64,000 bases of DNA from an uncultured bacterium (GTDB lineage: Bacteria > Latescibacterota > UBA2968 > UBA8231): the NCBI GenBank assembly GCA_964011675.1, contig CAXGPR010000006.1, forward strand, positions 10,611 to 74,610, given 5' to 3'. The position numbers and the translations under genes are program-made. Shown here one piece after another: positions 14,826 to 63,519 of this stretch. The notes beneath the pieces were generated by a model that saw only the letters and a list, made by a program, of their open reading frames with translations, was not told where the DNA came from and did not search any database. Position 1 is the first letter of the stretch, and each line of letters opens with the position of its first letter.

Positions 14826-17170
14826 CAGGAAATACGCTAACTGCCGTTGAACGACACGCGCTCGAACAGTCCCCTCTTGGAGACCTGTATGTTCCAAGAG
14901 AAAAGATGCGAACGATTGTTGTAGACAACTTTCCCTCTCTGGGAAAGCTCGCAGCCATGCGCTTTATCGAATGGGTGCAGCACAACCCCGGCGGTGTTAT
15001 ATCGCTGCCCACTGGTAAAACCCCCGAGCACTTTATTCGCTGGGTGACGCATGTAATGAGCGCATGGGGCACGCCTGAAGTTGTGCGCGAACTGGAGGCC
15101 AACGGCATAGATCCAGGTGTGAAACCGGATATGGCCTCTCTGCACTTTGTGCAGATTGACGAATTTTATCCCATAGATCCGGGCCAGGGAAACAGTTTTT
15201 TTTCCTATGTGAATAAGTTTTACATCGAGGGGTTTGGCCTCTCGCCTGAGCGAGCGCTGCTGATGGACTGCAACGAGATCGGTCTACTGCCCGGTCAGAC
15301 GCTCTCCAGCGTTTGGGCAGATGGAGAGGTAGACCTGTCGCTGCGCAATCGAGCTGCGCAAACCGCGTTGGAGAGCACGCAGCAGCAGGCCCTGATGCGC
15401 ATTGACCAGTGGTGCCAGCAATACGAACAGCGCATACGCGACCTGGGCGGCATTGGCTTTTTTCTGGGTGGGATTGGTCCAGATGGGCACATAGGGTTCA
15501 ACGTGCGCGGGGCAGACCACTTTAGCACGACGCGTCTGACGGGGGTTAATTACGAGACGCAGGCCGCCGCCGCTGGGGACCTAGGCGGTATTGAGGTCGC
15601 GCGCAAGCGACTGGTGATCACGATAGGATTGGGCACGATTGCCTATAACCGAGAGGCCTGTGCGCTCGTTATAGCAGCAGGTGAGGCCAAGGCGGGGATT
15701 GTAGCCGATGCGGTGGAAAGCGATCCGGACGTCTCATATCCGGCAACCGCGCTGCACAGTTTGCCCGGTGCGCGGTTTTACATAACGCTGGGGGCTGCTA
15801 AGCTTCTGGAGCGTCGTCAGCTCGATTTACTAGCTCGACAGGAGCAGGTTGACGATGAGACGGTAGAAAAGATCGTAGTCGACTTGGCCGTTGACTGTAA
15901 TAAGCAGATTGATGCGTTAACAGAAGCTGATTTTGCTGATAGCGAATTCGCTGCAGCGCTCCTCGAGCGTCGCCCCGAGAGCGTAGGGGAGCTTACGCAA
16001 AGCGTGCGCAACAGGCTGATTTCCAAGATCGAGCGGGGTATGGATACGATGCAAGATACGCGTTTCTTGCACACGGAGCCCCATCACGACGATCTGATGC
16101 TTGGCTATTGGCCTTACATCGTTCGGCACACCAGGCCCGATAGCAACACGCACTATTTCGTCTGTTTGACTGGTGGGTTTACGGCGGTCACAAATCAGTT
16201 TATCTGTGACCATGTTGAACGACTGCGGCGCTTTCTCGACAGCGCTGACTGCGCTCTCCTCATGGACGAGGGTTACTTTGATCCGAGCAATAGTCAGGGA
16301 CGCAATCGCGACGTGTGGCAGTATCTTGACGGCGTAGCCGCTGACGATGAAGATCTGCGCAACGAGGGTATGGCGCGGCGCTTCCTGCGCAATCTGATTG
16401 ATTTGTATGGGTCGATGGACCGCGCGGCGCTTAAGGAGCGCATCGGAGCTTTGGAGGACTATTTTTCTGCGCATTATCCAGGTCAAAAAGACGAGTCCGA
16501 CATACAGCGCCTAAAGAGCATGTGCCGAGAATGGGAAGCCGAGTGCACTTGGGGCTATTTGGGGTGGAACTGCGAAAGCGTGCGGCATCTGCGACTCAGC
16601 TTCTACACGGGCGATATTTTTACCCGCGAACCTACCGTCGAAGGCGACGTCGTTCCGGTGATCAACCTACTTGAAGAGGTCAATCCAGATATTGTCAGCG
16701 TCGCGCTCGACCCGGAAGCAAGCGGCCCAGATACCCATTACAAAGTCCTACAGGCGATCACCGAGGCGCTGCGGCGCTACGAGGCGACGAGCGGACGCTC
16801 CGATATAAAGGTCTGGGGCTACCGGAACGTGTGGTTTCGCTTTCATCCCAGTGAAGCAGACATCTTTGTTCCGGTCTCACTCAATATGCTCTCTGTTATG
16901 CACAGTGCGTTTATGAACACCTTTATCTCTCAGCGCGATGCGTCATTTCCTAGCTACGAGCACGATGGTCCCTTTTCCGAACTGGCACGTAAGGTGCAGG
17001 TCGATCAGTATCAGAAACTCAAAACGTGCTTGGGACGGGCTTGGTTTCACGAGCACCCGAGTCCGCTTATTCGAGCGACGCGCGGTTTGGTTTATCTCAA
17101 GGAAATGCCGTTGGGCGAGTTTTACGAGCGCAGTCGCACGCTTATGTTGGCGGCGGAGAATCGTCAATAA
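14822..17170 (+). CDS. Glucosamine-6-phosphate deaminase domain fused to a PIG-L/LmbE-type deacetylase domain (long NagB)
   Basis: N-terminus SLPTGKTP, QIDEFYP, GGIGPDGHIGFN; C-terminus HTEPHHDDLMLG, CLTGG, GPDTHYK, WGYRNVW. Confidence 0.8.
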   Translation: MTGNTLTAVERHALEQSPLGDLYVPREKMRTIVVDNFPSLGKLAAMRFIEWVQHNPGGVISLPTGKTPEHFIRWVTHVMSAWGTPEVVRELEANGIDPGVKPDMASLHFVQIDEFYPIDPGQGNSFFSYVNKFYIEGFGLSPERALLMDCNEIGLLPGQTLSSVWADGEVDLSLRNRAAQTALESTQQQALMRIDQWCQQYEQRIRDLGGIGFFLGGIGPDGHIGFNVRGADHFSTTRLTGVNYETQAAAAGDLGGIEVARKRLVITIGLGTIAYNREACALVIAAGEAKAGIVADAVESDPDVSYPATALHSLPGARFYITLGAAKLLERRQLDLLARQEQVDDETVEKIVVDLAVDCNKQIDALTEADFADSEFAAALLERRPESVGELTQSVRNRLISKIERGMDTMQDTRFLHTEPHHDDLMLGYWPYIVRHTRPDSNTHYFVCLTGGFTAVTNQFICDHVERLRRFLDSADCALLMDEGYFDPSNSQGRNRDVWQYLDGVAADDEDLRNEGMARRFLRNLIDLYGSMDRAALKERIGALEDYFSAHYPGQKDESDIQRLKSMCREWEAECTWGYLGWNCESVRHLRLSFYTGDIFTREPTVEGDVVPVINLLEEVNPDIVSVALDPEASGPDTHYKVLQAITEALRRYEATSGRSDIKVWGYRNVWFRFHPSEADIFVPVSLNMLSVMHSAFMNTFISQRDASFPSYEHDGPFSELARKVQVDQYQKLKTCLGRAWFHEHPSPLIRATRGLVYLKEMPLGEFYERSRTLMLAAENRQ

Positions 17171-21898: not shown

Positions 21899-22624
21899 GT
21901 GCACATGGGCATACCGGACTCACTGGAATACTTCTTCTTAGCCGTTGTGCTGGGTGTGATTGCCCTCACTGGGCTGGCCATTCGCGCTAGTGACTCAGAG
22001 GGTGGTTCCGCTCACCTGCTCGTGGTTCGTTCCCTACTGCTCTGCGTTCTCTGGTTGGCAGTAGCGGGCCAGATGGCCCACGAGGGATGGCTGCGCGACT
22101 TTAGCGGTGCGTGGCCTGCGTTTGCCCTGCTTGGTCTCTGCGCGGTTGGACTCGTGTTTGCCCTGGCTTTTTCACCGCTTGGTCGACGACTGCTGGAAGG
22201 CGTTGGGCCAGCGCTCCTCGTTGCATTCCAGGCAATTCGCGTGCCGATAGAAGCGTTTGTCCACCAGCTGTATCAGGCCGGCTATGCGCCCGTGCAAGTG
22301 ACCTATGCGGGCCTAAACTTCGATATTTTTTCCGGCCTGACAGCGCCGGCTATGGGCTGGCTTGTATGGAGGAACAAGGTGGGACGCGTTACGCTCTTAT
22401 CTTGGAATGTATTTTGCCTGTTGTTGCTGTTTAATTCGCTCAGCCTCATGGCTCTTTCGATGCCGACACCGCTGCGACTCTTTGCCAACGAACCAACGTA
22501 CATAGCCCTTACCTATCCACCCTTTGTGTGGTTGCCTACTTTTCTGCTGCCGGTGTCTCTGTTGGGACACTTGCTCGTTTTTCGCTGGATATGGTGGCAA
22601 CGACGGGGACCGACGAGTGTATGA
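21899..22624 (+). CDS. Uncharacterised integral membrane protein (6-7 TM)
   Basis: Alternating hydrophobic segments; FQAIRVPIE, TYAGLNFDIFSG, PFVWLPTFLLP. Confidence 0.65.
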   Translation: MHMGIPDSLEYFFLAVVLGVIALTGLAIRASDSEGGSAHLLVVRSLLLCVLWLAVAGQMAHEGWLRDFSGAWPAFALLGLCAVGLVFALAFSPLGRRLLEGVGPALLVAFQAIRVPIEAFVHQLYQAGYAPVQVTYAGLNFDIFSGLTAPAMGWLVWRNKVGRVTLLSWNVFCLLLLFNSLSLMALSMPTPLRLFANEPTYIALTYPPFVWLPTFLLPVSLLGHLLVFRWIWWQRRGPTSV

Positions 22625-24015
22625 GTGACAAAATGAATATTGTGTTTATTCTGAGTGATGATCAGGGCATTTGGGCCAATGGCTGCTACGGCAATCCAGA
22701 GATCCGCACGTCTCATATCGACCGTTTGGCCGCTACCGGTATGCGCTTTGATAATTTCTTTGTCGCTACGCCCGTTTGTTCGCCGAGCCGCGCTACGTTT
22801 CTAACGGGTCGCATTTCATCGCAGCACGGCGTGCACGATTGGATACGCGAAGGCAATACCGGAGCCGATGCGGCGCTCTACCTAGAAGATGAAGTCGCCT
22901 ATACGGACGTGCTGGCCGAGCACGGTTGGCGCTGTGGTCTGAGCGGAAAGTGGCACCTCGGATACAGTCAGATCGCTCAACACGGATTTGATCATTGGTT
23001 TGTGCACCAGAGCGGCGGCGGGGAATACAACGACGCGCCGATGATCCGCGACGGGGAATTGATTAAGGCGCCCGGCTATGTGACTACGGCTATTACCGAC
23101 GATGCACTCGAATATATAGATCGCTCCGCAGAGCGTGCTGAGCCGTTCTATTTGAGCGTGCACTACACCGCTCCGCACAGCCCGTGGACGGGTCATCCGC
23201 AGGACATCGTCGACTCGTATGACGACTGTGCGTTTGACTCGTGCCCGCAGGAAGACATGCATCCGTGGGCCGTAGGCCATCCGCTCAGCGAGGGTTGCTT
23301 AGGCAATCGAGAGATGCTCAAAGGGTATTTTGCCGCCGTGACGGCGATGGATTTGGAGATCGGTCGTCTGCTGGATAGGCTGGAAGAGAAAGGGCTGCGA
23401 GAGCAAACCTTAGTTGTCTTTACCAGCGATAACGGCTTTAGCTGCGGCCAGCACGGTTTTTGGGGCAAGGGCAACGGCACGTATCCGCCCAATATGTATG
23501 AAAACTCGGTTAAGGTCCCTTTTGTGATAAGCCTGCCGGGTGCCATTGAACAAGGGGTCGTGCAACGCGAGATGGTCAGCGCATACGACTTTATGCCGAC
23601 GCTGCTCGATTACGCAGGGCTGCCACTGCCGACGGGCCGCAATTTGCCGGGGCAGAGCTTTGCGCCGCTGCTGCGCGGCGAAGGACTCGGGCGGGATGAA
23701 GTGGTCGTATATGACGAGTACGGCGGCACGCGCATGCTGCGCACGCGCGAATGGAAGTATGTGCATCGCTATCCGGATGGTCCCTGCGAGCTCTACGATT
23801 TAGTCAACGACCCGGACGAACGCGTAAACAGAGCAGACGATGCGAGTCAGGTAGAACGCATCGGGGCGCTGCGCGGTCAATTAGAAGCGTGGTTTGCCCG
23901 CTATGTCGTTCCGGAAAGAGACGGACGCGATGCCCCGGTGCGCGGTTCTGGTCAGCTGCGTCCCATCGGTGGAAAGTGGAAAGACGATCCACGTGCGGCT
24001 TTTGCAGAGAGATAG
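22621..24015 (+). CDS. Sulfatase (Cys-type, formylglycine-dependent)
   Basis: ILSDDQG, CSPSRATFLTG, GKWHLG, FTSDNG, YDLVNDPDE; ATG at 22621 overlaps the upstream TGA. Confidence 0.93.
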   Translation: MSDKMNIVFILSDDQGIWANGCYGNPEIRTSHIDRLAATGMRFDNFFVATPVCSPSRATFLTGRISSQHGVHDWIREGNTGADAALYLEDEVAYTDVLAEHGWRCGLSGKWHLGYSQIAQHGFDHWFVHQSGGGEYNDAPMIRDGELIKAPGYVTTAITDDALEYIDRSAERAEPFYLSVHYTAPHSPWTGHPQDIVDSYDDCAFDSCPQEDMHPWAVGHPLSEGCLGNREMLKGYFAAVTAMDLEIGRLLDRLEEKGLREQTLVVFTSDNGFSCGQHGFWGKGNGTYPPNMYENSVKVPFVISLPGAIEQGVVQREMVSAYDFMPTLLDYAGLPLPTGRNLPGQSFAPLLRGEGLGRDEVVVYDEYGGTRMLRTREWKYVHRYPDGPCELYDLVNDPDERVNRADDASQVERIGALRGQLEAWFARYVVPERDGRDAPVRGSGQLRPIGGKWKDDPRAAFAER

Positions 24016-24883: not shown

Positions 24884-26392
24884 TTAGTCGCCCATTTGCT
24901 GCTCATCTAGGAAGTCCATTTCTGGACGCAAGTCCCAGCGGCACACATCGGGGGGCTGCACGGTGCGCCCCCAGCCTGCCAGCACCTTGCTCTCTTCGCG
25001 CCACTGGGCTAGGCGCGCCGAAATGTTCTCTGGGTTCCAGCCGTTGAGTACCTCGGCCGTCAGCTCGGCCACGACTTCTTGGCACGCAGGATCGTTGGCG
25101 CGATCCTGCGTCTCGCGCGGATCTTCCCATAGGTTAAACAGTTGCGACGGCAGGCCGTGATAGTAGACGAGCTTCCACGGTCCGCGTCGAATCATGCGCT
25201 GGAAGGTGCCCTCGATTGGAAAGGGTCCACCGGCACCGGCCGCGTCGTAGCACAGTTCGGAAAACGCAACGTCGTCCCACGCCGTCATCTCGCCGCGCAG
25301 CAGCGGCAGCAGGCTGCGTCCGCGCGAAGCGGGCAGGGGCGGGCATTCCAGTGCATCGAGCATTGTGGCATTCAAATCAAGTGAGGAAATGACGCGTTCA
25401 CTGCGGACGCCGGCCGGCAGCTGTCCTGGCCAAGAGAGTATGGCCGGCACTTTTACTGAGTCTTCGTAAAAGGTCTGTTTCCACCACAGGCCGTGTTCGC
25501 CAACCTGTTCACCGTGGTCTGAGGTATACACGATGAGGGTATTGTCTGTTAGGTCGTTTTCGCGCAGGGCAGCTAATATTTGGCCAATAAAGACGTCCAT
25601 GCGCTCGACCAACGCCCAGTAGGCGGCGCGGGCACGCCGCATTTCTTCTTCGCTTACCGCTTCGATACCGCAATCTGAACGCCAGGCTTTGATATGGGGA
25701 TGCAAGTGATCGCCAAAAGGCTCGAGCGTTTTCGGTGGAAACATGTTTTTATAGTAGTATTCGTAATCGGCTCGCCGTGCGACAAAAGGTTGATGGGGTA
25801 GCATAAACCCGACCGAAAGCGAGAAGGGTTTGGCTTGCCGACCCGCGCGTTTTTGCACGCCGAGTCTATTGAAAAAGTCTACGGTTGCAGCGGTCACATC
25901 TTCGTCGTGTACTTGATATGCGCTCTGACCGTGCCCTGCTTTTTCCAGGCTAATGCGCCCGGGCCCGGCCGTGCCAGAGAGGAAGCCGTGGTCCACGGCG
26001 CGCCCGCCCATTTGGTTGGGGCCGTGATCCCCGACGAGCCGTTCGGCATAGCCGCGTAGCTGGTCAGGGCCGTTGGAGTGCATGCGCCCGACAAGGACGG
26101 GGTGGTAGCCACCGGCTCCCATGGCATGGGCTAACGTGGGAATGCTTGAGTCGAGTATCTGGCTGTTGGTCCAAACTCCATTTTCGTGCGGGTATCGGCC
26201 CGATAGCATGGACATGCGTGACGGCACGCAGATGGGAGAGGGACAGTAGGTATGGTCTAATACGACGCCTTGGGCGGCGAGTGCATCGAGATGGGGTGTC
26301 CGCACGAGTGTGTCTCCATAGCACCCATTTACATAGGGGCTGTGCTGATCCGAGTGGATATAAAGTAAGTTGGTCTGCGGTGTGCTAGTCAT
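24884..26392 (-). CDS. Sulfatase (choline-sulfatase-like)
   Basis: IHSDQH, SPICVPSRMSMLSG, VGRMH, LPHQPF, YTSDHGE, QLFNLWEDPRE; likely ATG at 26392. Confidence 0.9.
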   Translation of the reverse strand: MTSTPQTNLLYIHSDQHSPYVNGCYGDTLVRTPHLDALAAQGVVLDHTYCPSPICVPSRMSMLSGRYPHENGVWTNSQILDSSIPTLAHAMGAGGYHPVLVGRMHSNGPDQLRGYAERLVGDHGPNQMGGRAVDHGFLSGTAGPGRISLEKAGHGQSAYQVHDEDVTAATVDFFNRLGVQKRAGRQAKPFSLSVGFMLPHQPFVARRADYEYYYKNMFPPKTLEPFGDHLHPHIKAWRSDCGIEAVSEEEMRRARAAYWALVERMDVFIGQILAALRENDLTDNTLIVYTSDHGEQVGEHGLWWKQTFYEDSVKVPAILSWPGQLPAGVRSERVISSLDLNATMLDALECPPLPASRGRSLLPLLRGEMTAWDDVAFSELCYDAAGAGGPFPIEGTFQRMIRRGPWKLVYYHGLPSQLFNLWEDPRETQDRANDPACQEVVAELTAEVLNGWNPENISARLAQWREESKVLAGWGRTVQPPDVCRWDLRPEMDFLDEQQMGD

Positions 26393-26501
26393 GGCGCTTC
26401 GTTTTCTTTTCCTGTTGGAACGTCTATTGTTGGGCACTTAGAAGCGGAGTGTTACATTTATCTACGCATTCCTCGATGCGGCTTCTACCCAAGGTTTGCT
26501 T

Positions 26502-28191: not shown

Positions 28192-29835
28192 ATGAAAAAG
28201 AGCCGCCGAAAAGAAAAAAAGCCGGTTGGCGAACCAGCTACTGCTTCGGATGCCAATCAGTCTCTCATAAATGGATCCAACGCATTTTCCGACGGTGTGC
28301 AGGGGCGTCGTCTCATACCTGTATTTATTGCCCTGTGCGCGCTGTTGGTTGGGATTTGGACATTCGACCCGAAACTCTCGCTCAGCGGGGACAACACCGA
28401 GTTTATCACGTTGGCGCGGAGTCTTGCCCAGGGGGAGGGATTGGTTCATCTCAACGATCCCAATCCACAGCCAGCGACGAAATATCCCTTCGGCTTTCCT
28501 CTTTTGCTCGCGCCGGTTGAGCTTTTATTCCCCGGAGAGTGGACGCCAATGAAGGCGTGGGTGCTACTTTTATTTTCAGTGGGTATGGGCATGCTCTATC
28601 TGCTGATGCGCGACAGAATGGGTGCGCTGCCATCGATTGCGGTCGTGGGGCTGAGCGTGACGGCGGGACAGAGCTATCTGACGACAGATGCCAGCGGCCA
28701 TCACTTTGGGCCGCTGCTGCTTCACTTCTCGCATCAGGTCATGTCTGAGGCTCCCTTCCTCACCGTGTCGTTGGCTGCGCTATGGCTGCTGCAGCGCGGC
28801 GTTCAGCGAGAGGGCATACGAGGCAATCGCGAACTTCTGGCCGGCTTTGTTCTCGCTGTGTTCGCCTATTACATTCGCAGCGTTGGAATTACTCTGCTCG
28901 GGGCGATCATTGTGTACCTATTTTTGCAGCGCGATATACGTCGAGGTCTCATTTTTTCTGCGGCGTCTCTCTTGGCCTGGCTGCCGTGGACACTGCGCAA
29001 TCGCGCCGTGGGTGGCGGGGGCGTCTATTTTCAACAGCTCATACAGGTCAATCCATACTATCCCGACCAAGGGTTGCTCGACGTTGTTGGCTTTTTCGGG
29101 CGACTGACGGGGAATGGAGCAGCCTATCTCAACGTAGAATTGCCGCGCTTGCTGTGGCCTTTCTTCTCTGGCGACGGAGCATTTGGCCCCGTTTCCGTTT
29201 TCATAATATTACTCGCGGCCTATACGCTCATGCAGGCACTGCGTTTTCGCCGCGACGTGCTTTTAGTGCTCTATACCGCGTTTACGATCGGCGTAGCGCT
29301 GCTGTGGTTTTGGGTAGATGCGCGCTTTCTTTTTGGCGTAGTGCCACTGTTTATTTACTTCGCCGTCCGCGCGGTCAATGATCTAGCCGATGGGATTTCA
29401 GCCCACGGCGGTCCGTGGACGGGACGCGCGCTGCGCTGGGGTCTGCTGGTAGCCGTTGTTTGGGGGCAGATCCCGGGCGTATCGCGCCTAGCCGAGTACA
29501 GCCGCGCAGACTATCCGCCGGCGTGGAGTCGTTATTATCAGGCCGGACAGTGGCTCAAAGAGCACACCGACGAGAGCGCAATCGTGCTGTGTCGAAAGGG
29601 CTACTGGATGTATATCGTATCCGGACGCCGTGCCGTGGGATTCCCCTTTGAAGACCCCAGCGTTATTATGGCACATATGGAGCAGCAAGCAGTAGATTAT
29701 GTCGTGTTAGAGAGTCTTGGATTTGCGCAAACGGCCAGGTATTTAGCACCGGCCGTTAACGAGCACATGGATCGCTTTAGCATTGCGTGGAAAGATGAGA
29801 ACGTGCCCACGTATGTGTTGAAACTCGACAACTGA
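28192..29835 (+). CDS. GT-C fold membrane glycosyltransferase (ArnT/PMT-like)
   Basis: SGDNTEFITLARSL, KYPFGFPLLL, VMSEAPF, RFLFGVVP; many TM helices and a C-terminal soluble domain. Confidence 0.75.
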   Translation: MKKSRRKEKKPVGEPATASDANQSLINGSNAFSDGVQGRRLIPVFIALCALLVGIWTFDPKLSLSGDNTEFITLARSLAQGEGLVHLNDPNPQPATKYPFGFPLLLAPVELLFPGEWTPMKAWVLLLFSVGMGMLYLLMRDRMGALPSIAVVGLSVTAGQSYLTTDASGHHFGPLLLHFSHQVMSEAPFLTVSLAALWLLQRGVQREGIRGNRELLAGFVLAVFAYYIRSVGITLLGAIIVYLFLQRDIRRGLIFSAASLLAWLPWTLRNRAVGGGGVYFQQLIQVNPYYPDQGLLDVVGFFGRLTGNGAAYLNVELPRLLWPFFSGDGAFGPVSVFIILLAAYTLMQALRFRRDVLLVLYTAFTIGVALLWFWVDARFLFGVVPLFIYFAVRAVNDLADGISAHGGPWTGRALRWGLLVAVVWGQIPGVSRLAEYSRADYPPAWSRYYQAGQWLKEHTDESAIVLCRKGYWMYIVSGRRAVGFPFEDPSVIMAHMEQQAVDYVVLESLGFAQTARYLAPAVNEHMDRFSIAWKDENVPTYVLKLDN

Positions 29836-29927: not shown

Positions 29928-31823
29928 GTGTCTAACCGCCTCGGCCAACTCTGGCCTCTACTATCCTACGCACTGCTGAGTCTTCTCTTTACGTATCCTC
30001 TGGTTACTCAATTAGATACGCACGTGCCCGGGCGGCTCGAAGGCGACATTCCCGTATACATCTGGAATCTGTGGTGGATGAAGCAGTCGTTGCTGGAGTG
30101 GCATTCGCCGCTGTTTAGCGAACACATCTTTGCCCCCTATGGCGTCTCGCTTGCCTTTCACGCATTTGTATTTTTGAAGTCGTTTATAGCGGTTCCACTG
30201 CAGGCCTTTATGTCTGCTTGGACTGCGTATAACCTGCTTATACTGAGCACGTTCACGATGGCTGGCTTCGCGATGTTCCTCTTGGCGCGACACTTAACGC
30301 GAGATGTGTTTGCCGCTTGGGTTGCAGGCGTTGCCTATGCCTTCAGTCCCTACATGCTCACCCGTGGTTTGGGTCACTTGAACTATCTCAGCAGTGAGTG
30401 GATGCCCCTCTACATATTGTGCCTCCTAAAACTGGTCGATTCTTCCGAGAGGCGGTGGTCGCTAGGGGGGAGCGCTTTCCTACTCTTGACGGCCTACTGT
30501 GAATACTACTACTTAATTTATCTGGCACTCTTCACGGCCATCTACTTAGTCTGGTCTTATATACACCGTCCTGATCAGATTCTCTGCGGCGACTTTGTTC
30601 GTAACTTTTTGCTTATGGGGGCTCTTGCCGCACTGGGTTTTGCTCCGATTCTAAGCATGCTGTTGGGAACAGAGCAGAGCGACTACCTCTACGGTGGATG
30701 GGGTGCTACGGCGAAATTGGGAGCAGATGCTCTGGCTTTTGTTGTGCCCCCTCCAGGATCGCTGCTGTACGGCGATATAGGATCTTCTCTCTACGACGTA
30801 TTCTCGGGCGGCAATGCCATAGAAGGCACGGTCTTTGTCGGATTTGTAGCGCTGGCTCTCGTGCTCTTTGTGTCTGTGCGCCTGCGCACCGATAAGGCAA
30901 TTCAGTTTTGGCTTTGGGGCGCGCTCGTATTTTTCCTGCTTTCGCTAGGGCCTCTACTACATGTGGGAGGAGACTTTGTCTTTGGCGGAGGCCCCGTGCG
31001 CTTTGCGGTGCCCTTGCCCTACGTGGGGCTGCGCTTTATTCCATTAGTGAAAGGCGCGCGCGTACCGGCGCGTTTCGACATTATGGTGGCGCTGTGCGTG
31101 GCGGTGCTTATCGCCTATGCGCTGTGGCATATGCGCGGTCGCTGGCGGCATGCCAATCGCTGGACGGTCCTCGTTGCCATTCTTCTGTGCCTGGAGTATC
31201 TTAGACTGCCCTATCCGACAGCACCCGTTCACATTCCCATTGCCTACCGTGAAGTAGCGGCGGACCCGCGCGACGTCGCCGTGTTGGACGTGCCGCTGGG
31301 TTGGCGCACCGGGTGGGGTGATACCGGCCGGACGTTTGATCGCCAGCAGCTCTATCAGATCGTGCACGGCAAGCGGCTGATCGGGGGGTTTGCTTCGCGG
31401 GTTCCCGAACGTGAGCTCGAACGCATTCTGTCTTTGCCGGGCATTGGCACCTTGCTGGAATTGCAGCAGGATTTGCCCAAACCTATCGGACCGACGGCGG
31501 CGCGGCGCGGTGCAATACGGACGCAATTAGTAGAGCTATTGGAGCACCTGCCCGACTCCGTTAGGGAACAAATCGAACGCGATCCTTCAGTGGCTAACTT
31601 TATAGCCAACACATCTGCTGAGCGCGAGCGCGTGCTGTCCACTTCACGCGTGGGACAGCTAGGCGATTTGGTGGAGAGCGTGCAGTTGGGATACGTGTTC
31701 TTGCATCCTCCCTATAGCACTCACTTGCCTATTCGCACTTATATGGAGACTCAGCTGCCCGTAGAGGTGTTTTACGAGCGCGACGGATTAATAGGTTATC
31801 GCGTCGTAGAAATCAACCGTTGA
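29928..31823 (+). CDS. GT-C/YfhO-like membrane glycosyltransferase
   Basis: GDIPVYIWNLWW, AYAFSPY, LLSLGP, RVPARF, VLDVP, QIVHGKRLIGG. Confidence 0.65.
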   Translation: MSNRLGQLWPLLSYALLSLLFTYPLVTQLDTHVPGRLEGDIPVYIWNLWWMKQSLLEWHSPLFSEHIFAPYGVSLAFHAFVFLKSFIAVPLQAFMSAWTAYNLLILSTFTMAGFAMFLLARHLTRDVFAAWVAGVAYAFSPYMLTRGLGHLNYLSSEWMPLYILCLLKLVDSSERRWSLGGSAFLLLTAYCEYYYLIYLALFTAIYLVWSYIHRPDQILCGDFVRNFLLMGALAALGFAPILSMLLGTEQSDYLYGGWGATAKLGADALAFVVPPPGSLLYGDIGSSLYDVFSGGNAIEGTVFVGFVALALVLFVSVRLRTDKAIQFWLWGALVFFLLSLGPLLHVGGDFVFGGGPVRFAVPLPYVGLRFIPLVKGARVPARFDIMVALCVAVLIAYALWHMRGRWRHANRWTVLVAILLCLEYLRLPYPTAPVHIPIAYREVAADPRDVAVLDVPLGWRTGWGDTGRTFDRQQLYQIVHGKRLIGGFASRVPERELERILSLPGIGTLLELQQDLPKPIGPTAARRGAIRTQLVELLEHLPDSVREQIERDPSVANFIANTSAERERVLSTSRVGQLGDLVESVQLGYVFLHPPYSTHLPIRTYMETQLPVEVFYERDGLIGYRVVEINR

Positions 31824-35926: not shown

Positions 35927-37408
35927 ATGAAATGGCTGATTCTGATCCTCTCACTCTGCGCGTGTGCGCCGCGGGAAGAGTCGCTCCCTCCGCAGGTAGA
36001 GGAGCCTCGGTCCGATACCGCTGCTGCGCCGCCCAGCGGGGCGGCGTACGTGTGGCAAGACGAGGCGCTGACGTGGCATGCATGGGAAGAGGTTGAGGCG
36101 GTCATCGGACGCGCCCAGCGCCCGCTGCTTTTTTACGTGGCTGGACCCGGATGTGAGGGGTTATTCGCTGCCCCCTCTTCGCTGCTGAAGGAACTAGTGG
36201 AAAAACGCTACTGGGGGGTGCGGGTCGATCCCTTTCTGTGGCCCGACGCAGTGCGCTACCTGCGGACCAGCGGGTGTCCGTCGTTGGTCATCGCCAGACC
36301 TGATGGGCAAATCGTTGCCCGTGCTACGGATATTCCGCCGCGTCACGTAGAATCGTACTTATTGCGCATCTTGAATGCCTTTGACCGCGCCGGCGACGAG
36401 ATCAGTTCGATAGGGCCTGCCGCAGAGGCTCCACTTGCGGTTGATTTGGCCGATGTTCGCGCGGGTTTGCTGTCTGCTGCCGACCCGCGTCACGGGGGGC
36501 TATTTGGTCCGCAGAAATACGTGCACGGGCAGGCCCTGCGCTTTCTCTGGCACTACGCGTCCGCGTCGGATGGCGCTCAGTCGCGCTCTGTGGTAGAAAA
36601 GGCGGTAACGGCGTTTCTGCGTTCGCCGCTGCGCGATCGTTCCAGCGGCGCTTTTGCACTCTACTCCTATACGCCTGATTGGTTACAGCCCGTAGGAGAT
36701 AGAGACGTGCTCAATCAGGCAGAGACCGTGCAGCTGCTGGTAGACCTAGGTCGGCACGCGCCGGTGGATGCATGGGTAAGGTATGTAGAGCGCGAATTAC
36801 TCGATCCCGTTACGGGTGCGCTGCGCGGCAGGCAGGTTCGGCTGAATGACGGGCGTTGGTGGACCGATGAACGCCTCTATGCCGATCGGGTTGCCAGCGC
36901 GGTGATCGCGCTTATGCGGATTGCGGAGCAGAGAGATCGGGCGGTTTCTACCGATATAGCAGAGAACGCCGTCGATTTCCTGCTGGCACACTGCATTGGT
37001 GAAGAGGGGGAAGTTCGGCATGCCTGCAGAGCTGAGGGACCGCAGGGACTGTTGGTCGACCAAGCGTTAGTGGCCCTTGCCCTACAGGCTGTGCAGTATC
37101 GGTTTGAGCAGCCTGCTGTCGGGGACGCGATGCGACGGGTAGTCGAATTTGCCGAGAGTCAGCTTTACGCGGAAGAGCGGGGAACATTTTCTGCCGGATG
37201 GCGCTGGCCCGTTGCAGAAGACTTTTCTGTTGCCGACGACGGATATCCAGTGGGAAACGCGCTGATGGCAGAGTGGTACTACAGACAGAACGATCGCGCG
37301 CGCGCCGAAGCGTTGGTAGAGCGGGCGCGTTTTCTGGACGGCCAGTACAGAGTCGCCGCACACTGGTCGCTGCTGCAGGTTGCATACGGAGAGTCCGAAC
37401 GACAATGA
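35927..37408 (+). CDS. Lipoprotein with degenerate thioredoxin-like domain and YyaL/SSP411-like alpha-barrel
   Basis: Lipobox LSLCAC; AQRPLLFYV...GCEG...VRVD...WPD...GCPSLV thioredoxin-like segment; DPRHGGLFGPQK, SGAFALYS, DERLYAD and DDGYPVGNALMA resemble YyaL. Confidence 0.6.
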   Translation: MKWLILILSLCACAPREESLPPQVEEPRSDTAAAPPSGAAYVWQDEALTWHAWEEVEAVIGRAQRPLLFYVAGPGCEGLFAAPSSLLKELVEKRYWGVRVDPFLWPDAVRYLRTSGCPSLVIARPDGQIVARATDIPPRHVESYLLRILNAFDRAGDEISSIGPAAEAPLAVDLADVRAGLLSAADPRHGGLFGPQKYVHGQALRFLWHYASASDGAQSRSVVEKAVTAFLRSPLRDRSSGAFALYSYTPDWLQPVGDRDVLNQAETVQLLVDLGRHAPVDAWVRYVERELLDPVTGALRGRQVRLNDGRWWTDERLYADRVASAVIALMRIAEQRDRAVSTDIAENAVDFLLAHCIGEEGEVRHACRAEGPQGLLVDQALVALALQAVQYRFEQPAVGDAMRRVVEFAESQLYAEERGTFSAGWRWPVAEDFSVADDGYPVGNALMAEWYYRQNDRARAEALVERARFLDGQYRVAAHWSLLQVAYGESERQ

Positions 37409-46357: not shown

Positions 46358-47401
46358 GTGACGCTTCGAATTGGTATCATCGGTGCGGGTGCCAATACCC
46401 GCCTTCAGCATATTCCCGGCTTTCGCTCTATTCCAGACGTTGAGATTACGGCCGTGTGTAACCGCTCCCTCACCTCGAGTCAGCGTGCAGCAGAGGAGCT
46501 GGATATTCCGCATGCATTTGAAGATTGGAAGGCGCTGGTACATTCCGACAGCGTTGACGCGGTGTGTATTGGAACATGGCCCTACATGCACTGTCCCATT
46601 TCGCTAGAAGCTTTATCAGCGGGTAAGCACGTGCTGACGGAAGCGCGTATGTGTATGAATCTGGCCGAAGCTAGGCAAATGCAGGCGGCGGCCGTCGCTA
46701 GCGACGGCGTTGCGATGATTGTTCCAGCGCCGATGTATTTGGCGGCAGAGCCGCTCTTACTAAAGATGTTAGAAGACGGTTTCTTCGGTGATCTCATCGA
46801 AATCGAAGTGCGCGGTTTGGGGGGCGTCTACAATCCAGACACTCCGTTGCACTGGCGTCAGCGGCGGGATTTTTCGGGGCAAAACATAATGACCTTGGGC
46901 ATTCTCAACGAGACGGTGCGTCGCTATGCCGGCCACGAAAAGCACGTGCTAGCCAATAGCGCGACGTTTACAGCGGAGCGCGTGGACTCAGAGTATGGAT
47001 TGGTGCGTCCAGTCGATGTGCCCGATAGCTTGGGCGTTTTGGCAGAGCTGGAAAACGGCGCCCAGGCGGTTTATCATCTTAGCAGCGTTGCTCGCTTGGG
47101 AGATGGTTCGACGTTTGAATTTTACGGGACAAAAGGCAGCTTCAAAATGGAGGGTGGATCTGCCATTGAACCTGGGCGCGTGTGGATCGCCGGCTCAGAC
47201 GACGCTTCCTATCGTCCGTTGGAAGTGCCCGAACTGCCGCGCAATGCTTGGCGTGTGGAGGAAGATTTTATCGATGCGATTTTACAGGGGCGTGCGGTAA
47301 CGCATACTCATTTCGACGACGGCGTGCGCTACATGCAGTTTACGGAAGCCGTTCAGGTCAGTCTAGCCGAGGGCCGCAAGGTGGCGCTAGATGAGCTCTA
47401 G
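46358..47401 (+). CDS. Gfo/Idh/MocA family oxidoreductase
   Basis: IGIIGAGANT, DAVCIGTWPYMH, GKHVLTEARM; GTG start at 46358 after an AAGGAG RBS. Confidence 0.85.
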   Translation: MTLRIGIIGAGANTRLQHIPGFRSIPDVEITAVCNRSLTSSQRAAEELDIPHAFEDWKALVHSDSVDAVCIGTWPYMHCPISLEALSAGKHVLTEARMCMNLAEARQMQAAAVASDGVAMIVPAPMYLAAEPLLLKMLEDGFFGDLIEIEVRGLGGVYNPDTPLHWRQRRDFSGQNIMTLGILNETVRRYAGHEKHVLANSATFTAERVDSEYGLVRPVDVPDSLGVLAELENGAQAVYHLSSVARLGDGSTFEFYGTKGSFKMEGGSAIEPGRVWIAGSDDASYRPLEVPELPRNAWRVEEDFIDAILQGRAVTHTHFDDGVRYMQFTEAVQVSLAEGRKVALDEL

Positions 47402-48392
47402 TCGCGCGGAGCAGGTAAGATTGACGTCAATCCATTGCTGGGCCCTATTCATCGTCCTCCACCTGGCGTCTTTTTCCTCTGTCGCCGAGACGGTTGACCC
47501 TCGTCTGGTCGCCAATCCCGAGAAAGGGGAATGGACGCTTTTCGTCATTCCCGATACCCAGCACTATTCACAGGACAGAAGCAACGCCCCTATCGCCTAT
47601 ATGCACTCGGCTTTTGACTGGTTGGTGGCAACGCGCGATCAGCTCAACATAAAGTTTGTGCAGGGACTGGGTGATATTGTGGAGAGCGGCAGCTTTTTTG
47701 CCGAGTGGGATAGGGCAAGCGTCGCCTGGAACAAACTCTACGGCCAGATTCCGTTTGTGGTCAATCAGGGCAACCACGACAGTATTAGCTCAATTAATAA
47801 ATACTTCCCGGTCGCCAACTTTGAGAGCGAGCCCTGGTGGGGTGGAAGTTACGAAGGTATTCACAATTCTTATCAGGTATTCAATTTCTACGGCGAGGAT
47901 TTCCTGTTTATAAATGTTCAGTCGCACGATCCTTGGGGCACGGATAATCCGGGTGCGCGAGCCTGGGCTAATGGAGTCATCGCCGCCCACCCCGAGCACA
48001 AGGTGTTGCTCGGCACCCACGACACCTTAGAGACGAGTACGATCAAGAGGGATATTCTAACTCAGCACGATAATATTGTCCTGTCCAACGCAGGACACAG
48101 CTGCGCACGGGAGACGCGTTTTCTGACCTTCGGTCCGGACGGCGGTGTGGCACAAAACTTTGTCGTCGATTATCAATGCGACAAACAGGAAATTATGCTG
48201 CTGCGATATTACGTGTTTAGACCGCTCGAAGACAGGGTCGACTACTACACCTACTCGCCGATTGCCGATATCTTCGAGGAGGATACAAATTCTCAGGGCT
48301 CTTTCGATCTGGAAATGCGCGACGATATCGACACGGCCGTAGTGAATTCACCTTGGAGTTGGATTAAAGCGAAGCTCAGACCGAGCCGTTGA
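47391..48392 (+). CDS. Secreted calcineurin-like metallophosphoesterase
   Basis: Signal-like N-terminus; IPDTQHY, LGDIVE, QGNHD, THD, AGH; ends DTAVVNSPWSWIKAKLRPSR. Confidence 0.8.
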   Translation: MSSSRAEQVRLTSIHCWALFIVLHLASFSSVAETVDPRLVANPEKGEWTLFVIPDTQHYSQDRSNAPIAYMHSAFDWLVATRDQLNIKFVQGLGDIVESGSFFAEWDRASVAWNKLYGQIPFVVNQGNHDSISSINKYFPVANFESEPWWGGSYEGIHNSYQVFNFYGEDFLFINVQSHDPWGTDNPGARAWANGVIAAHPEHKVLLGTHDTLETSTIKRDILTQHDNIVLSNAGHSCARETRFLTFGPDGGVAQNFVVDYQCDKQEIMLLRYYVFRPLEDRVDYYTYSPIADIFEEDTNSQGSFDLEMRDDIDTAVVNSPWSWIKAKLRPSR

Positions 48393-59119: not shown

Positions 59120-60152
59120 TTTGGTGCGCTACGTAATCCTTAAACCGGCTGTCTTCCTGCGCGCGGGCGTAGTGCGTGCGCGCTTGGCGCATTTGCCCCA
59201 GTTTAAAGTAGGCATCGCCTAAGAGAGCCTGCGCCGCAGCCAGATTTCTATCGTGGCGGATGGCGGATTGTCCGGACTCAATGGCTTTTTGGTATGCACC
59301 CAAGCCGTAGTGTGCTTCGCCGAGGCGGAAATGCGCATCGGCATTTTTCTTGTCCAATTCCGTAGCACGCTTCAATGGTTCAATCGCTTCGTGCTGCCGT
59401 CCGAGTTGGTTGAGCGCTGTGCCGAGAAAGAGATAGCCTTCGGCATACTTGGCATCTGCCTCAAGAGCTGTTTGCATGAGCTCTAAGACGCCTTCAACGT
59501 CTTGCGTAGCAAATTTGACGCGGGCGAGTCCTCCGTAGGCCGCCATGTATTTGGAGTCGGCATCGATTGCCTTCTGATAGGTTATCGATGCAGGACCGTA
59601 ATCGCGCCGACGGCGCTGCATGTCTGCCAGTTGATAATAGGCTTTGGCGTGTTCAGGGTCTGCCTTGACTGCGCCTTCGAAGGCATTTTGCGCCTTCGCC
59701 TCATCGCGGTTTCCGCTGTGGGACAGGCCTAAAGCATAGAGTGTTTTCGCATTGTTGGGGTCCAATTGAAGTGCCTGTTCAAAGCGAACTACGGCCTCTC
59801 TATATTTGCGCTGCTGCAAACTGGCAATGGCTGATTTGTTATACAGCTTGCCCAGCGCACTTGCACATTTTTCCGGGCGGATACCGAGCTCACGTGCTTT
59901 CTCGTAGGCGCTTATTGCCTTTTCGTATTCGTTGAGCACGTTGTAGGCTTGGGCGAGTAAGTAGTGCGCCTCGCCGTATGCAGGATTGGCGTTAACGGCC
60001 TGCTCAAACTCGATGGCGGCGTTGCGAAAATTGCGCTTTGTGAGTAGTTCATATCCAGCTCTGTAATGTCCTTCGGCCTTTTCATTCTCCTGGGCGTTGA
60101 CCCCTGATGCGACAATGAAAATCGCGCACAAGCAAAGGGAAATGCGTAGCAT
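59085..60152 (-). CDS. Secreted tetratricopeptide repeat protein
   Basis: Signal peptide MLRISLCLCAIFIVASGVNA (ATG at 60152, GGAG RBS); about 9 tandem TPR-like repeats. Confidence 0.85.
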   Translation of the reverse strand: MLRISLCLCAIFIVASGVNAQENEKAEGHYRAGYELLTKRNFRNAAIEFEQAVNANPAYGEAHYLLAQAYNVLNEYEKAISAYEKARELGIRPEKCASALGKLYNKSAIASLQQRKYREAVVRFEQALQLDPNNAKTLYALGLSHSGNRDEAKAQNAFEGAVKADPEHAKAYYQLADMQRRRRDYGPASITYQKAIDADSKYMAAYGGLARVKFATQDVEGVLELMQTALEADAKYAEGYLFLGTALNQLGRQHEAIEPLKRATELDKKNADAHFRLGEAHYGLGAYQKAIESGQSAIRHDRNLAAAQALLGDAYFKLGQMRQARTHYARAQEDSRFKDYVAHQIEEIDRANQQP

Positions 60153-60244
60153 GCGGGTTGTCTCCAAGGAAGGCAGTGGCAGCTTATAAGTCCCCGTTGG
60201 CACTGCCTTTTGTTTTTGCTGTGCCAAGCGGGTCTCGTCCCGTG

Positions 60245-60475
60245 TTATCGGGTGTCGATGAGTGACTTTATTTCTGTGAAATCGGGATATCTTTTCTCAG
60301 CGAGCTTTGAATAGATGAGCACGTCGTCTAGTTCGATTTCAAAGCGCCCTCCATCAGATGGAACAAGGGCGAACTCGCTGACGTCTTTTTTGTAATGCTT
60401 TAGTAGTTGTTCCGCCAAACTGACGGCTTCGGGTTCGTAGCCTCAGGAAGAACAATAGGTTAGGCGCAGTTTCAT
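60245..60475 (-). CDS. SelW/SelT/SelH (Rdx family) selenoprotein, 76 aa, Sec at codon 11
   Basis: Not in the ORF track. ATG at 60475, in-frame TGA at 60445-60443, TAA at 60247-60245: MKLRLTYCSSUGYEPEAVSLAEQLLKHYKKDVSEFALVPSDGGRFEIELDDVLIYSKLAEKRYPDFTEIKSLIDTR. Has the Rdx motifs YCxxU.Y, GG.FEI and YSK....YP. Confidence 0.92.
60412..60426 (-). promoter_or_regulatory. Candidate bacterial SECIS hairpin
   Basis: mRNA CCGUCA-GUU-UGGCGG (6 bp, two G-U pairs) beginning 17 nt after the UGA; apical loop starts with G. Confidence 0.55.
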
Positions 60476-60522
60476 GACGAAAATCCTTCGGTTATATTGT
60501 TGAATGATTATTATAACGGGGT

Positions 60523-63519
60523 GTGAGCCTGTTGTCAAAGCGCGTAGCAGTCGGCGCGCGCGACCTATTTTCTCGACATTTCTCATCTGAAAGACGGTCG
60601 GTCATCACTTATCAGTGGGTAGTTATTTTAAGTCTGACCCTTCTCTACGCGCCATTTGCTGAACCGCAGAAGTCAGATGCGTTCCCCTACAAACTGCGGT
60701 GGAAATATTTGGTTCCCAATCCGTTGCAGTCGGCGGTGTCCGAAGGGGATTCGCTGTATTTTGTCGCGAGTATGGAAGGACGCCTCTCGGCGTTGCGCAA
60801 AAGCGACGGTGTGCGGATTTGGCGACGGCGCGATCTGGGACCGGTATGGGCTTCCCCTGTCGTGTGGGAAGGGCAGGTGATTGTGGCCGATGCGTGGGGT
60901 CTGGTCCGTTCGCTGCGGACGGATACGGGAGATGAAAACTGGTCCTTTCAGCGCACGGGTGGAGGCCGCTGCGTTCTTGTTCAAGCGGATGATCTGCTGT
61001 ATGTGTCCGCAGCGGACGGCTGGCTGTATGCGCTTGAGTCCGATGGACGGGAGCAGTGGCGTGTGCGCACTGGAAAGGGCGGGGCGCTCGGCGTTGCTGT
61101 GCGCGCCGGCAGAGTGTACACGCGTTCGAGTAGCGGGTGGCTGTCGCTCGATAGCGCTACCGGTCGGCGTATTTTCGAACGGGATCTGGGCGCCCTCGCG
61201 ACGACTCCGCCGAGCGTAATCGAAGGACGGCTTATAGTGGCGACAGGCGATGGATACGTGCGATCTCACGCGCTGGACGATGGCGAGTCGAGTTGGCGTG
61301 CGTGGCTGGGCGCCCGGTTGGTATCGCCGCCCGTCAGAGCGGCCCATTACCTGATGTGCGCCGCAGACAACGGCTATTTGTATGCGCTGTCTTCCAAAGA
61401 CGGACAGATTGCTTGGCGAAGGCGCGTTCAGGGTGGCACCGACGGGGGCGCGGTGATGGGAGCGTGGGGCGAAATTGTCGTGGCTTCAGGGTCTGGAGAG
61501 ATGACGGGATTTGATCCAATGTCGGGTGATGTATGGTGGTCTGTCCGGTTGGGGCGTGAGAAGGGCACGCGCGTATACGCTACGCAGTCTGGATTATGGG
61601 CCTTGTCTGATGATGGGTACGCCCATGTTTTTACTCCACTGAGTCGAGACCACCGGCCTGATAAATCCGGGATGGTATCGTGGTGGGAGATATTTGTCGA
61701 CGGTAAAAAGACGGGTTATCGCTACGAACGAGTGCTCTCACGGCCGCAGGGCGGATGGGAAATTGAGGTGCGGGAAGTAGATTGGCGCGGGGGCTATCGT
61801 CGCAGCGAACGCGGTATGAGCGTGCGGGATGATTTTCGTCCGATCAGCGCCTGGGCAGCGCAGGCCGATGGGAATCAGGTGGTCAGAGAGCGTGCGCGGT
61901 GGCAGGGCGACGTTGTGAGAGTGGAGCAGACGTTGGCAGGGTATGCGCAGAGAGACAGCGCTGTAGCAGACGAAAGTGCGGTCGATAGGAGCGTGATATG
62001 GCGAAAGCTCGTTGGAGAAAGGCGCCTGCTGCCCGACCGGAGCGACTCGCTGCGCGTATTCGACTGGACGACTCGGCAGAGCTACTGGATCCACTTGCTT
62101 ATGGGGGCAGAGGAAATTGTGCGGGGAGAAAGAGCTCTTCGAATCGACGTAGTGCAGAAGGGGCATGAGGCCTACGCAACGACGTTCTGGGTGAATAGAG
62201 CGGGGCGTGTTGTGCGCGTCTGGCAACCGGCGCGGAGGGTGGAGCAACGCTTGACGGATCGGATCCATGCCGAACGCTGGTCGCCCCCGGCTGCGGATGA
62301 GGCCATCGTTTTGGATCGACCGATCAAGCGTCGGTCGGACTTAGACTGGCTGGTCGTCGAACTGCCAGATGACGCATCCAATCCGGATCTATGGCTAGCG
62401 GAAGATCCTTGGCAGAGGGTCTTCCGGGACACGACGGGGCGATTATTGCTCCGTCTGGAGCGCCGACAGGCGTCTCCCGAACCGGCACAATCGCTTTTGG
62501 ATAGTGCGGCATTGCACCCGTATCTATCCCCTTCTTTGTATGTCCATCCCAGCGATCCGCGCGTGCACGCGATCGTCGCTCAGTTGCAGGGGCGCGGCGA
62601 CCGAGACGCTTGGTCCATGGCGATGCGCATCCGCCGTTGGGTGTATGATCACATGGTGCCGCGGAGCACAAATGTGCGTTTTAAATCATCCTCAGAAGTG
62701 CTGGAAAATATGGAGGGGACTTGTAGTGAATACGCGGTGCTTTACATGGCGTTGTGTCGGGCAGCTGGCATACCTGTGCGCGCGAGCGCTGGTTGGGTTG
62801 TTGGTGATGCAGGAGAACTGATGTTGCACATATGGTGTCAGTTCTACGCCGGCTCGTGGATAGACGTCGATCCCACGCAGGACGCCGAAGCGATTGGAGC
62901 CGGATATATCAAAACAGGCAGTGGCTTGCTGACGCCGCATGGGCTACGTCAGTTGAGTGCGCCGCTAAGCCGCTGGATGGCGGCCGTAGATACGCTTTGG
63001 GTTGCCGAATACGGGGTCGAAAGTCGTCGATATGCCCGACGCGCTGCCGAGCTATTTGCCCGCGCAGGCGAGGCCGAACGAAATTTTGAGGATGCGCGCG
63101 CCATCGCCTTGTATCATCAGGTTGACAGGCTGCCTTGGAACGACCACAGTGCAAAAGCGCTGATACAGATCGCGCGCTATCGGCTACGGCGAGAGGAGTG
63201 GGACGATGCGCATTGGGCACTGGATCGGATTATGCGCCAGCTGCCGCGCGGTGACCAAGTTGATGACGCCTTATTTTATCGGGCCAAGCTGGCCGAAGCG
63301 CAGGGTGATAGTGTGGCTGCCGTGCGAGACTGGCAGGCCTTAGTGCGAGAATTTGCCGACTCTGAATTCGCCGATGATGCGCTTGGTCAACTCGCTGCCA
63401 GAGCCGAACAACGCGATGGTTGTGTTGCTGCGCTGCGATACTACGAGCAGCTGCGCGAGCAGTATAGTCGAACTGGATGGGCTGCGGTTGCGCGCTCTGC
63501 GATAGAGCGCTGCAGGTAA
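60523..63519 (+). CDS. Exported multidomain protein: PQQ-like beta-propeller + beta-sheet domain + transglutaminase-like core + TPR
   Basis: Repeats such as LYVSAADGWLYAL..DG...WR and CAADNGYLYAL...DG...WR; WWEIFVDGKKTGY; triad GTCSEY (C734), LHIW (H769), DVDPT (D783); C-terminal DDALFY...LVREFADSEFADDAL TPRs. Start codon uncertain. Confidence 0.8.
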   Translation: MSLLSKRVAVGARDLFSRHFSSERRSVITYQWVVILSLTLLYAPFAEPQKSDAFPYKLRWKYLVPNPLQSAVSEGDSLYFVASMEGRLSALRKSDGVRIWRRRDLGPVWASPVVWEGQVIVADAWGLVRSLRTDTGDENWSFQRTGGGRCVLVQADDLLYVSAADGWLYALESDGREQWRVRTGKGGALGVAVRAGRVYTRSSSGWLSLDSATGRRIFERDLGALATTPPSVIEGRLIVATGDGYVRSHALDDGESSWRAWLGARLVSPPVRAAHYLMCAADNGYLYALSSKDGQIAWRRRVQGGTDGGAVMGAWGEIVVASGSGEMTGFDPMSGDVWWSVRLGREKGTRVYATQSGLWALSDDGYAHVFTPLSRDHRPDKSGMVSWWEIFVDGKKTGYRYERVLSRPQGGWEIEVREVDWRGGYRRSERGMSVRDDFRPISAWAAQADGNQVVRERARWQGDVVRVEQTLAGYAQRDSAVADESAVDRSVIWRKLVGERRLLPDRSDSLRVFDWTTRQSYWIHLLMGAEEIVRGERALRIDVVQKGHEAYATTFWVNRAGRVVRVWQPARRVEQRLTDRIHAERWSPPAADEAIVLDRPIKRRSDLDWLVVELPDDASNPDLWLAEDPWQRVFRDTTGRLLLRLERRQASPEPAQSLLDSAALHPYLSPSLYVHPSDPRVHAIVAQLQGRGDRDAWSMAMRIRRWVYDHMVPRSTNVRFKSSSEVLENMEGTCSEYAVLYMALCRAAGIPVRASAGWVVGDAGELMLHIWCQFYAGSWIDVDPTQDAEAIGAGYIKTGSGLLTPHGLRQLSAPLSRWMAAVDTLWVAEYGVESRRYARRAAELFARAGEAERNFEDARAIALYHQVDRLPWNDHSAKALIQIARYRLRREEWDDAHWALDRIMRQLPRGDQVDDALFYRAKLAEAQGDSVAAVRDWQALVREFADSEFADDALGQLAARAEQRDGCVAALRYYEQLREQYSRTGWAAVARSAIERCR

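Follow-up and report, generated by a model that had tools for sequence, protein, structure and literature searches.

A truncated database entry conceals a probable SelW-like selenoprotein gene with an in-frame UGA codon and a SECIS-type hairpin

The gene, its database record and its expression signals

A short gene of the SelW-like (Rdx) family lies on the minus strand of the 64-kb stretch of DNA analysed here, referred to below as the window, and runs from ATG (60475-60473) through an in-frame TGA (60445-60443) to TAA (60247-60245). Its features are collected in Table 1. The 5' end reads ATG AAA CTG CGC CTA ACC TAT TGT TCT TCC TGA GGC TAC and, when TGA is translated as selenocysteine (Sec, U), the product is MKLRLTYCSSUGYEPEAVSLAEQLLKHYKKDVSEFALVPSDGGRFEIELDDVLIYSKLAEKRYPDFTEIKSLIDTR, 76 residues in length, followed by TAA. 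A preliminary description of this DNA had given the limits of the gene exactly but had not named its strand, and the 65 codons which it counted past the TGA were all present in the minus-strand reading, as were the GGRFEI, IYSK and RYP motifs. A plus-strand reading of 60245-60475 was discarded, as stops occur throughout it and it contains no ORF.

Table 1. Coordinates of the SelW-like gene and associated features in the window
Feature	Position	Strand	Basis or remark
SelW-like (Rdx family) gene, probable selenoprotein	60245..60475	-	76 codons + TAA, predicted Sec at codon 11
In-frame UGA, almost certainly read as selenocysteine codon	60443..60445	-	TGA kept in 61/61 relatives
Redox motif C8-S9-S10-U11 (TGT TCT TCC TGA)	60443..60454	-	CxxC alignment with PDB 3dex, 2fa8
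Bacterial SECIS-type hairpin CCGUCA-GUU-UGGCGG (predicted)	60412..60426	-	Starts 16 nt 3' of UGA; RNAalifold consensus
57-residue fragment of standard-code ORF callers	60245..60418	-	TTG start inside SECIS hairpin
Ribosome-binding site GAAGGA	60484..60489	-	8 nt 5' of ATG, read from sequence
Sigma-70-type promoter TTGACA-17 nt-TATAAT	60510..60538	-	12/12 consensus, a sequence match only; transcription start predicted

The preliminary description had also stated that the ORF caller missed this gene. This held for the N-terminal 19 residues, the CxxU centre among them, which were lost, but not for the gene as a whole, from which a 57-residue piece was called. This fragment is present in a public protein collection as entry P0003, the product of the window itself, and since it was both called and deposited, the gene was truncated by the caller rather than missed outright. 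The false start, TTG at 60418, straddles the loop-stem junction of the hairpin described below: its first T is the third base of the loop, and its other two bases open the 3' arm. A word-index protein search returned ten relatives, eight of which were N-terminally truncated calls and two of which were 76-residue calls with W at position 11. Entries P0005-P0009 of the same collection were truncated like P0003, and the two 76-residue entries, P0002 and P0004, matched only when the DNA was translated with TGA=W. Each of P0002 and P0004-P0009 is either a 57-residue fragment starting in the SECIS hairpin or a full-length protein with Trp in the place of Sec. The full-length Trp entries derive from short contigs on which a code with TGA=Trp had been applied. 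Truncation and Trp substitution together make up a systematic annotation artefact for this SelW-like family.

With respect to upstream signals, AGGA- or GGAG-like motifs were found in the same place upstream of the gene in relatives. Both promoter hexamers were kept in relative L009, and the same boxes were found upstream in L012, L001 and L005. The -35 box of this promoter falls inside the first codons of a divergent 998-residue ORF as listed (60523-63519, start GTG 60523), so that the ORF may in truth start downstream of the listed GTG.

Contigs from four metatranscriptome runs covered the gene; these were assembled contigs of low depth which may contain DNA. Metatranscriptome contigs covering 60101-60354, again of low depth and from variant strains, bridged the stop of the SelW-like gene and the start of the downstream gene for a TPR protein. 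No terminator-like site was found 3' of the SelW-like gene, and the observations together suggest co-transcription of the two genes. The runs in which the locus was found were marine or seawater metagenomes.

Family, conservation of the UGA codon and the hairpin

The 76-residue reading matched the Pfam Rdx family (PF10262) with 75.6 bits (cut-off 22.6, E=3.5e-21), residues 3-74 corresponding to positions 2-73 of the 74-position model, and NCBIfam TIGR02174 (CXXU_selWTH) with 65 bits (cut-off 34.2, E=5.7e-18). The best-scoring NCBIfam model was the Campylobacter-type SelT/SelW/SelH model NF041051 (SelTWH_Campy), yet its score of 81.6 bits lies below the curated cut-off of 88, and membership of that equivalog was ruled out. 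Sequence matches in the PDB were to the bacterial SelW-related structures 3dex, 2fa8, 2obk, 2oka, 2p0g and 2ojl (E 2.6e-10 to 3.2e-06). In the two of these matches which were printed residue by residue, 3dex and 2fa8, U11 fell on the second Cys of the CxxC motif, and both C8 and position 11 were invariant among 23 aligned relatives. An AlphaFold model built on these 23 relatives (pLDDT 97.2) showed the order strand, helix, three strands, helices, with the CSSU motif directly after the first beta strand (residues 2-8 of the model). When this model was compared with known structures by Foldseek, the top matches were 2obk, 2fa8 and 3dex (TM 0.90-0.93, rmsd 0.9-1.1 A); mouse SelW and MIEN1 were farther away (TM 0.67-0.78), and thioredoxins gave a TM of about 0.6. 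The earlier assignment to the Rdx/SelW family is thus borne out by both curated cut-offs, by the PDB matches and by the fold, and the alignment of the TGA with a Cys or Sec position, which had been proposed as a check, was obtained.

For comparison of the UGA codon between genomes we used the DNA of the relatives from the word-index protein search together with 53 loci from species-representative genomes. TGA was present at the aligned codon in 61/61 related loci, every one of them in a CxxU context. The preliminary description had named TGC or TGT in homologues as a sign of sequencing error or pseudogene; neither codon occurs in this place among the 61. These loci come from at least eight labelled phyla, the labels including Latescibacterota, Gemmatimonadota, Planctomycetota, Binatia, Chloroflexota, Verrucomicrobiales, Actinomarina, Fonsibacter and Thermodesulfobacteriota, and the best match to the window locus among species-representative genomes was 88% identical. 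Logan contigs from three marine metagenome samples (two studies), one of which may be the source of the assembly, showed no variant at 60443-60445. A contig of a variant strain from a metatranscriptome run also spanned the codon and kept TGA; codon 10 was changed from TCC to GCT, giving CSAU as found in relatives. A codon-anchored alignment was made of 54 distinct sequences. Across the four codons aligned 5' of the TGA, third positions had entropies of 0.69-1.79 bits while the amino acids were fixed, a pattern which shows that translation of this part shares its frame with the part 3' of the codon.

The RNAalifold consensus of the same 54 distinct sequences contained a hairpin, CCGUCA-GUY-UGRCGG, in which alignment columns 32-37 pair with columns 41-46. 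The stem in the window consists of CCGUC/GGCGG (5 bp) with an A-U closing pair, so that the loop can be counted as 3 nt (GUU) or 5 nt (AGUUU), and the loop bases G38 and U39 were invariant in 54/54 sequences. Pair 33-45 was C-G in 51 sequences, G-U in two and A-U in one; pair 34-44 was G-C in 52, A-U in one and G-U in one; pair 35-43 alternated between U-G (28) and U-A (26). Compensatory changes were found at two pairs of the six-pair structure named here, and at three of the six pairs in the RNAalifold structure. None of 500 shuffled controls reached the observed hairpin values, and controls in which the pairing partner was slid along the alignment were 10-59% paired, against 85.8% observed.

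Conservation over the hairpin extended to synonymous sites. The codons GCC GUC AGU YUG RCG, which lie 5-9 codons past the UGA, were almost invariant in their nucleotides, with third-position entropies of 0.36, 0.13, 0, 0 and 0.31 bits as compared with 0.95-1.96 bits in neighbouring codons. As these codons are frozen at the nucleotide level, the highly conserved peptide YEPEAVSL which follows Sec owes its conservation largely to the RNA element. The 16-nt core GCCGUCAGUYUGRCGG was almost letter-for-letter the same in SelW-like genes from at least eight labelled phyla.

In the published model of the bacterial SECIS (bSECIS), the apical loop has 3-9 nt and the upper stem 4-16 bp, a G occupies either of the first two loop positions and is usually followed by G or U, the distance from UGA to the apical loop is 16-37 nt, and the free energy is at or below -7.5 kcal/mol (PMC13188914). 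The loop size, the stem length and the loop G and U found here are all within these bounds, as is the distance from UGA to the loop of 21-22 nt (alignment columns 16 to 36/37). By itself the hairpin had a calculated energy of -7.2 kcal/mol; a small adjacent 5' helix brought this to -7.5 kcal/mol, which is exactly the threshold of the model. In loop, stem and spacing the predicted hairpin thus agrees with the bacterial SECIS model. No SECIS or other relevant Rfam family matched the locus at E<=10, and the 54-sequence alignment, which provides a covariation-supported SECIS of the SelW-like type with no matching Rfam model, could seed a covariance model.

When the window sequence was folded by itself, the minimum free energy structure (-13.3 kcal/mol, z = -1.1), more stable than the hairpin above, took the UGA into its pairing. 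Across the relatives this fold had no compensatory change and many broken pairs, and shuffled controls were equal to it, for which reasons it was rejected as a functional element.

Genetic code, gene neighbourhood and lineage

TGA is the stop codon of 22/53 genes in the window, many of which have full-length Pfam matches, and a search for further genes interrupted by an in-frame TGA gave 105 mechanical candidates in the window, of which none contained a redox motif or lay in a credible context for coding. Together these results indicate that the organism uses the standard code, and the UGA of the SelW-like gene would be a local recoding event. The statement of the preliminary description that no Sec machinery is encoded in the window held over the parts covered: the 64-kb window held no tRNA and no Rfam family at gathering threshold, and no SelA, SelB or SelD domain was found by Pfam in the 40 of 54 large ORFs checked, which included every one of suitable size.

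Six large ORFs of 333-782 residues (7841-9043, 14822-17170, 28192-29835, 29928-31823, 35927-37408 and 47391-48392) had no Pfam match at E<=1e-5. The window also contains two sulfatase genes on opposite strands, at 22528-24015 (plus) and 24884-26437 (minus), and is rich in genes for sugar epimerases or dehydratases and glycosyltransferases. The sulfatase, sugar and glycosyltransferase genes fit a polysaccharide-degrading, envelope-rich lifestyle.

Within the close clade the gene order was a divergent gene for a PQQ-propeller/transglutaminase protein, the SelW-like gene, and genes for a secreted TPR protein, Ham1/RdgB and two ABC transporters. This order was kept only in the close clade, Binatia and more distant relatives having other neighbours, and the context therefore gives no clue to the function of the SelW-like gene. 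In Binatia and their allies (L014-L053) two conserved genes were observed on the other strand about 1.5 kb 5' of the SelW-like gene, one for a protein of about 435-498 residues (35 loci) and one for a thioredoxin-like protein with a CHWC motif (31 loci).

The IMP dehydrogenase encoded in the window was 91-93% identical to that of three metagenome-assembled genomes (MAGs) labelled Gemmatimonadota, and 63-81% identical to those of dozens of MAGs labelled Candidatus Latescibacterota. The earlier guess of a candidate phylum agrees with these nearest labels, and by its sequence the organism is a marine member or close relative of the Latescibacterota (WS3).

An association of SelW-like genes with selD was seen elsewhere. 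In an Isosphaeraceae MAG (L050:3001-4369, the same place as L142), a SelW-like CxxU gene is followed 80 nt downstream by selD, the product of which matched TIGR00476 with 362.7 bits and has an in-frame TGA of its own (GUAGK). A SelW-like CxxU gene also lies directly upstream of selD in L153, L156, L158, L160 and L161, mostly Gemmatales or Gemmataceae. This arrangement hints at a link of SelW-like proteins with selenium metabolism in Planctomycetota. Among the scorable loci listed, the SelD active-site position was Sec in 54/74 and Cys in 20/74. When the SelD of L050 was used as query, the best 80 matches came from Planctomycetota, Acidobacteriota and others, and none of these was from Latescibacterota.

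Interpretation and comparison with known systems

We consider it very probable that this is a true Sec-decoded SelW-like gene, and the UGA at its eleventh codon almost certainly encodes selenocysteine. From the conservation of the codon and its surroundings we infer that the host organism is capable of Sec decoding. Translation would start at the ATG at 60475. In bacterial Sec decoding, the hairpin is bound by SelB carrying GTP and Sec-tRNA(Sec), which delivers Sec when the UGA occupies the A site (PMC13188914). By the same route SelB would be expected to bind the hairpin in this message and to deliver Sec-tRNA(Sec), so that UGA would be read as selenocysteine and not as a stop. The product would be a small cytoplasmic oxidoreductase of the SelW/Rdx family with a thioredoxin-like fold, its active centre Cys8-x-x-Sec11 placed in the loop that joins strand 1 to helix 1. 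By analogy with the family, Cys8 and Sec11 may alternate between the selenol/thiol state and a reversible selenenylsulfide, and the protein, as a putative thiol-disulfide oxidoreductase, would reduce a thiol or disulfide substrate. We know of no biochemical function for any bacterial SelW-like member.

A Sec-decoded gene predicts that selA, selB, selD and tRNA-Sec are encoded elsewhere in the genome. None of the four was found in the 64-kb window within the coverage given above, as would be the case if the gene were intact in an organism which had lost the Sec machinery or had never possessed it, where the UGA would terminate translation and the locus would be a silent remnant or would yield a C-terminal fragment only. 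However, the codons of the N-terminus are intact, along with the UGA and the SECIS hairpin, both here and in population variants and close relatives (72-97% identity), which is not expected of a relic; the promoter and ribosome-binding site are also intact, and the gene is found in RNA runs. We therefore regard a loss of decoding as improbable.

Less probable still, and by a wide measure doubtful, is that the true product is the 57-residue protein starting from TTG 60418, with the upstream part serving as a leader or untranslated region. An ORF at 60418-60245 does exist under translation table 11, and 57-residue entries are present in public databases. Such a fragment would nevertheless be without strand 1 and the CxxU centre, both of which are invariant in the family, and the TTG sits within the conserved hairpin without a ribosome-binding site of its own. 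Moreover, the codon pattern of evolution continues 5' of the UGA in the same frame, and the Rdx profile spans nearly the whole of the 76-residue reading.

Since CxxC forms of the family exist, and include all solved bacterial structures, the TGA might be taken for an artefact of sequencing or assembly, or else for a Cys codon recently mutated to a stop, which would make the locus a pseudogene. This reading is effectively refuted, and we give it next to no weight, because the TGA recurs in all related loci and is the same in the contigs of three samples and in the RNA-run contig of one variant strain. A genetic code with UGA as a sense codon for Trp or Gly, to which the W-bearing entries P0002 and P0004 might point, is equally negligible given the use of TGA as a stop across the window, the lack of any other credible in-frame TGA there and the alignment of the position with the catalytic Cys of homologues rather than with Trp.

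Taken as Sec-decoded, the gene adds one more, mis-annotated member to a known family and comes from a lineage that has received little study. The result is an annotation correction and not a discovery; it leaves knowledge of selenoproteins unchanged. Standard callers yield a 57-residue fragment without the active site, or place Trp at the UGA on short contigs, and a correct record credits with Sec decoding a marine candidate-phylum lineage of which little is known. A full-text search of the open-access literature found no papers linking Latescibacteria with selenoproteins, which is weak evidence of novelty. The SECIS core shared across phyla would suggest either that SelB recognition of this family is unusually strict and universal or that the gene has moved between phyla together with its SECIS. 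We advance only tentatively, as a joint claim somewhat more likely to fail than to hold, that the gene is the first recorded sign of UGA used as Sec in a marine Latescibacterota-related lineage and in addition reflects such a strict SelB site or such cross-phylum movement.

Mouse SelW (2npb) and MIEN1 (2ljk) belong to the same Rdx superfamily and share the thioredoxin-like fold and a CxxU or CxxC motif with the present protein, but are much more distant from it, as their TM values given above indicate. In eukaryotes the SECIS is located in the 3' UTR and acts through SBP2 and eEFSec, in contrast to the coding-region hairpin bound by SelB. The Cys-form bacterial SelW-related structures (2obk, 2fa8, 3dex, 2oka, 2p0g and 2ojl) are closer, with the same fold, the redox motif in the same place and 25-32% identity; they differ in having CxxC, with Cys for Sec, and in being about 25 residues longer (103-108 as deposited).

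With respect to the RNA element, the SECIS of E. coli fdhF is an experimentally characterised bacterial example (PMC13188914). As in fdhF, the hairpin of the present gene lies in the coding sequence just 3' of the UGA and would expose a G and a U in a small apical loop, although its stem is of a different sequence and is short (5-6 bp). The GU loop is presumably about one codon farther from the UGA than in fdhF.

The closest known system is that of the prokaryotic SelW-like selenoproteins, which are known from bacterial genomes and from the Sargasso Sea and GOS metagenomes (PMC1088965, PMC2398784). Such CxxU proteins have counted among the described prokaryotic selenoproteins for two decades, are the most abundant marine prokaryotic selenoprotein family (PMC2398784), and are listed in a 2026 review (SelW-like, PF10262, CxxU) as 'predicted with high confidence' (PMC13188914). 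The present gene resembles them in length class, N-terminal CxxU motif and marine habitat, in having an in-frame UGA with a SECIS hairpin after it in the coding region, and in profile scores above the cut-offs. It differs from them in nothing essential, the copy in the window being one from a marine Latescibacterota-related lineage.
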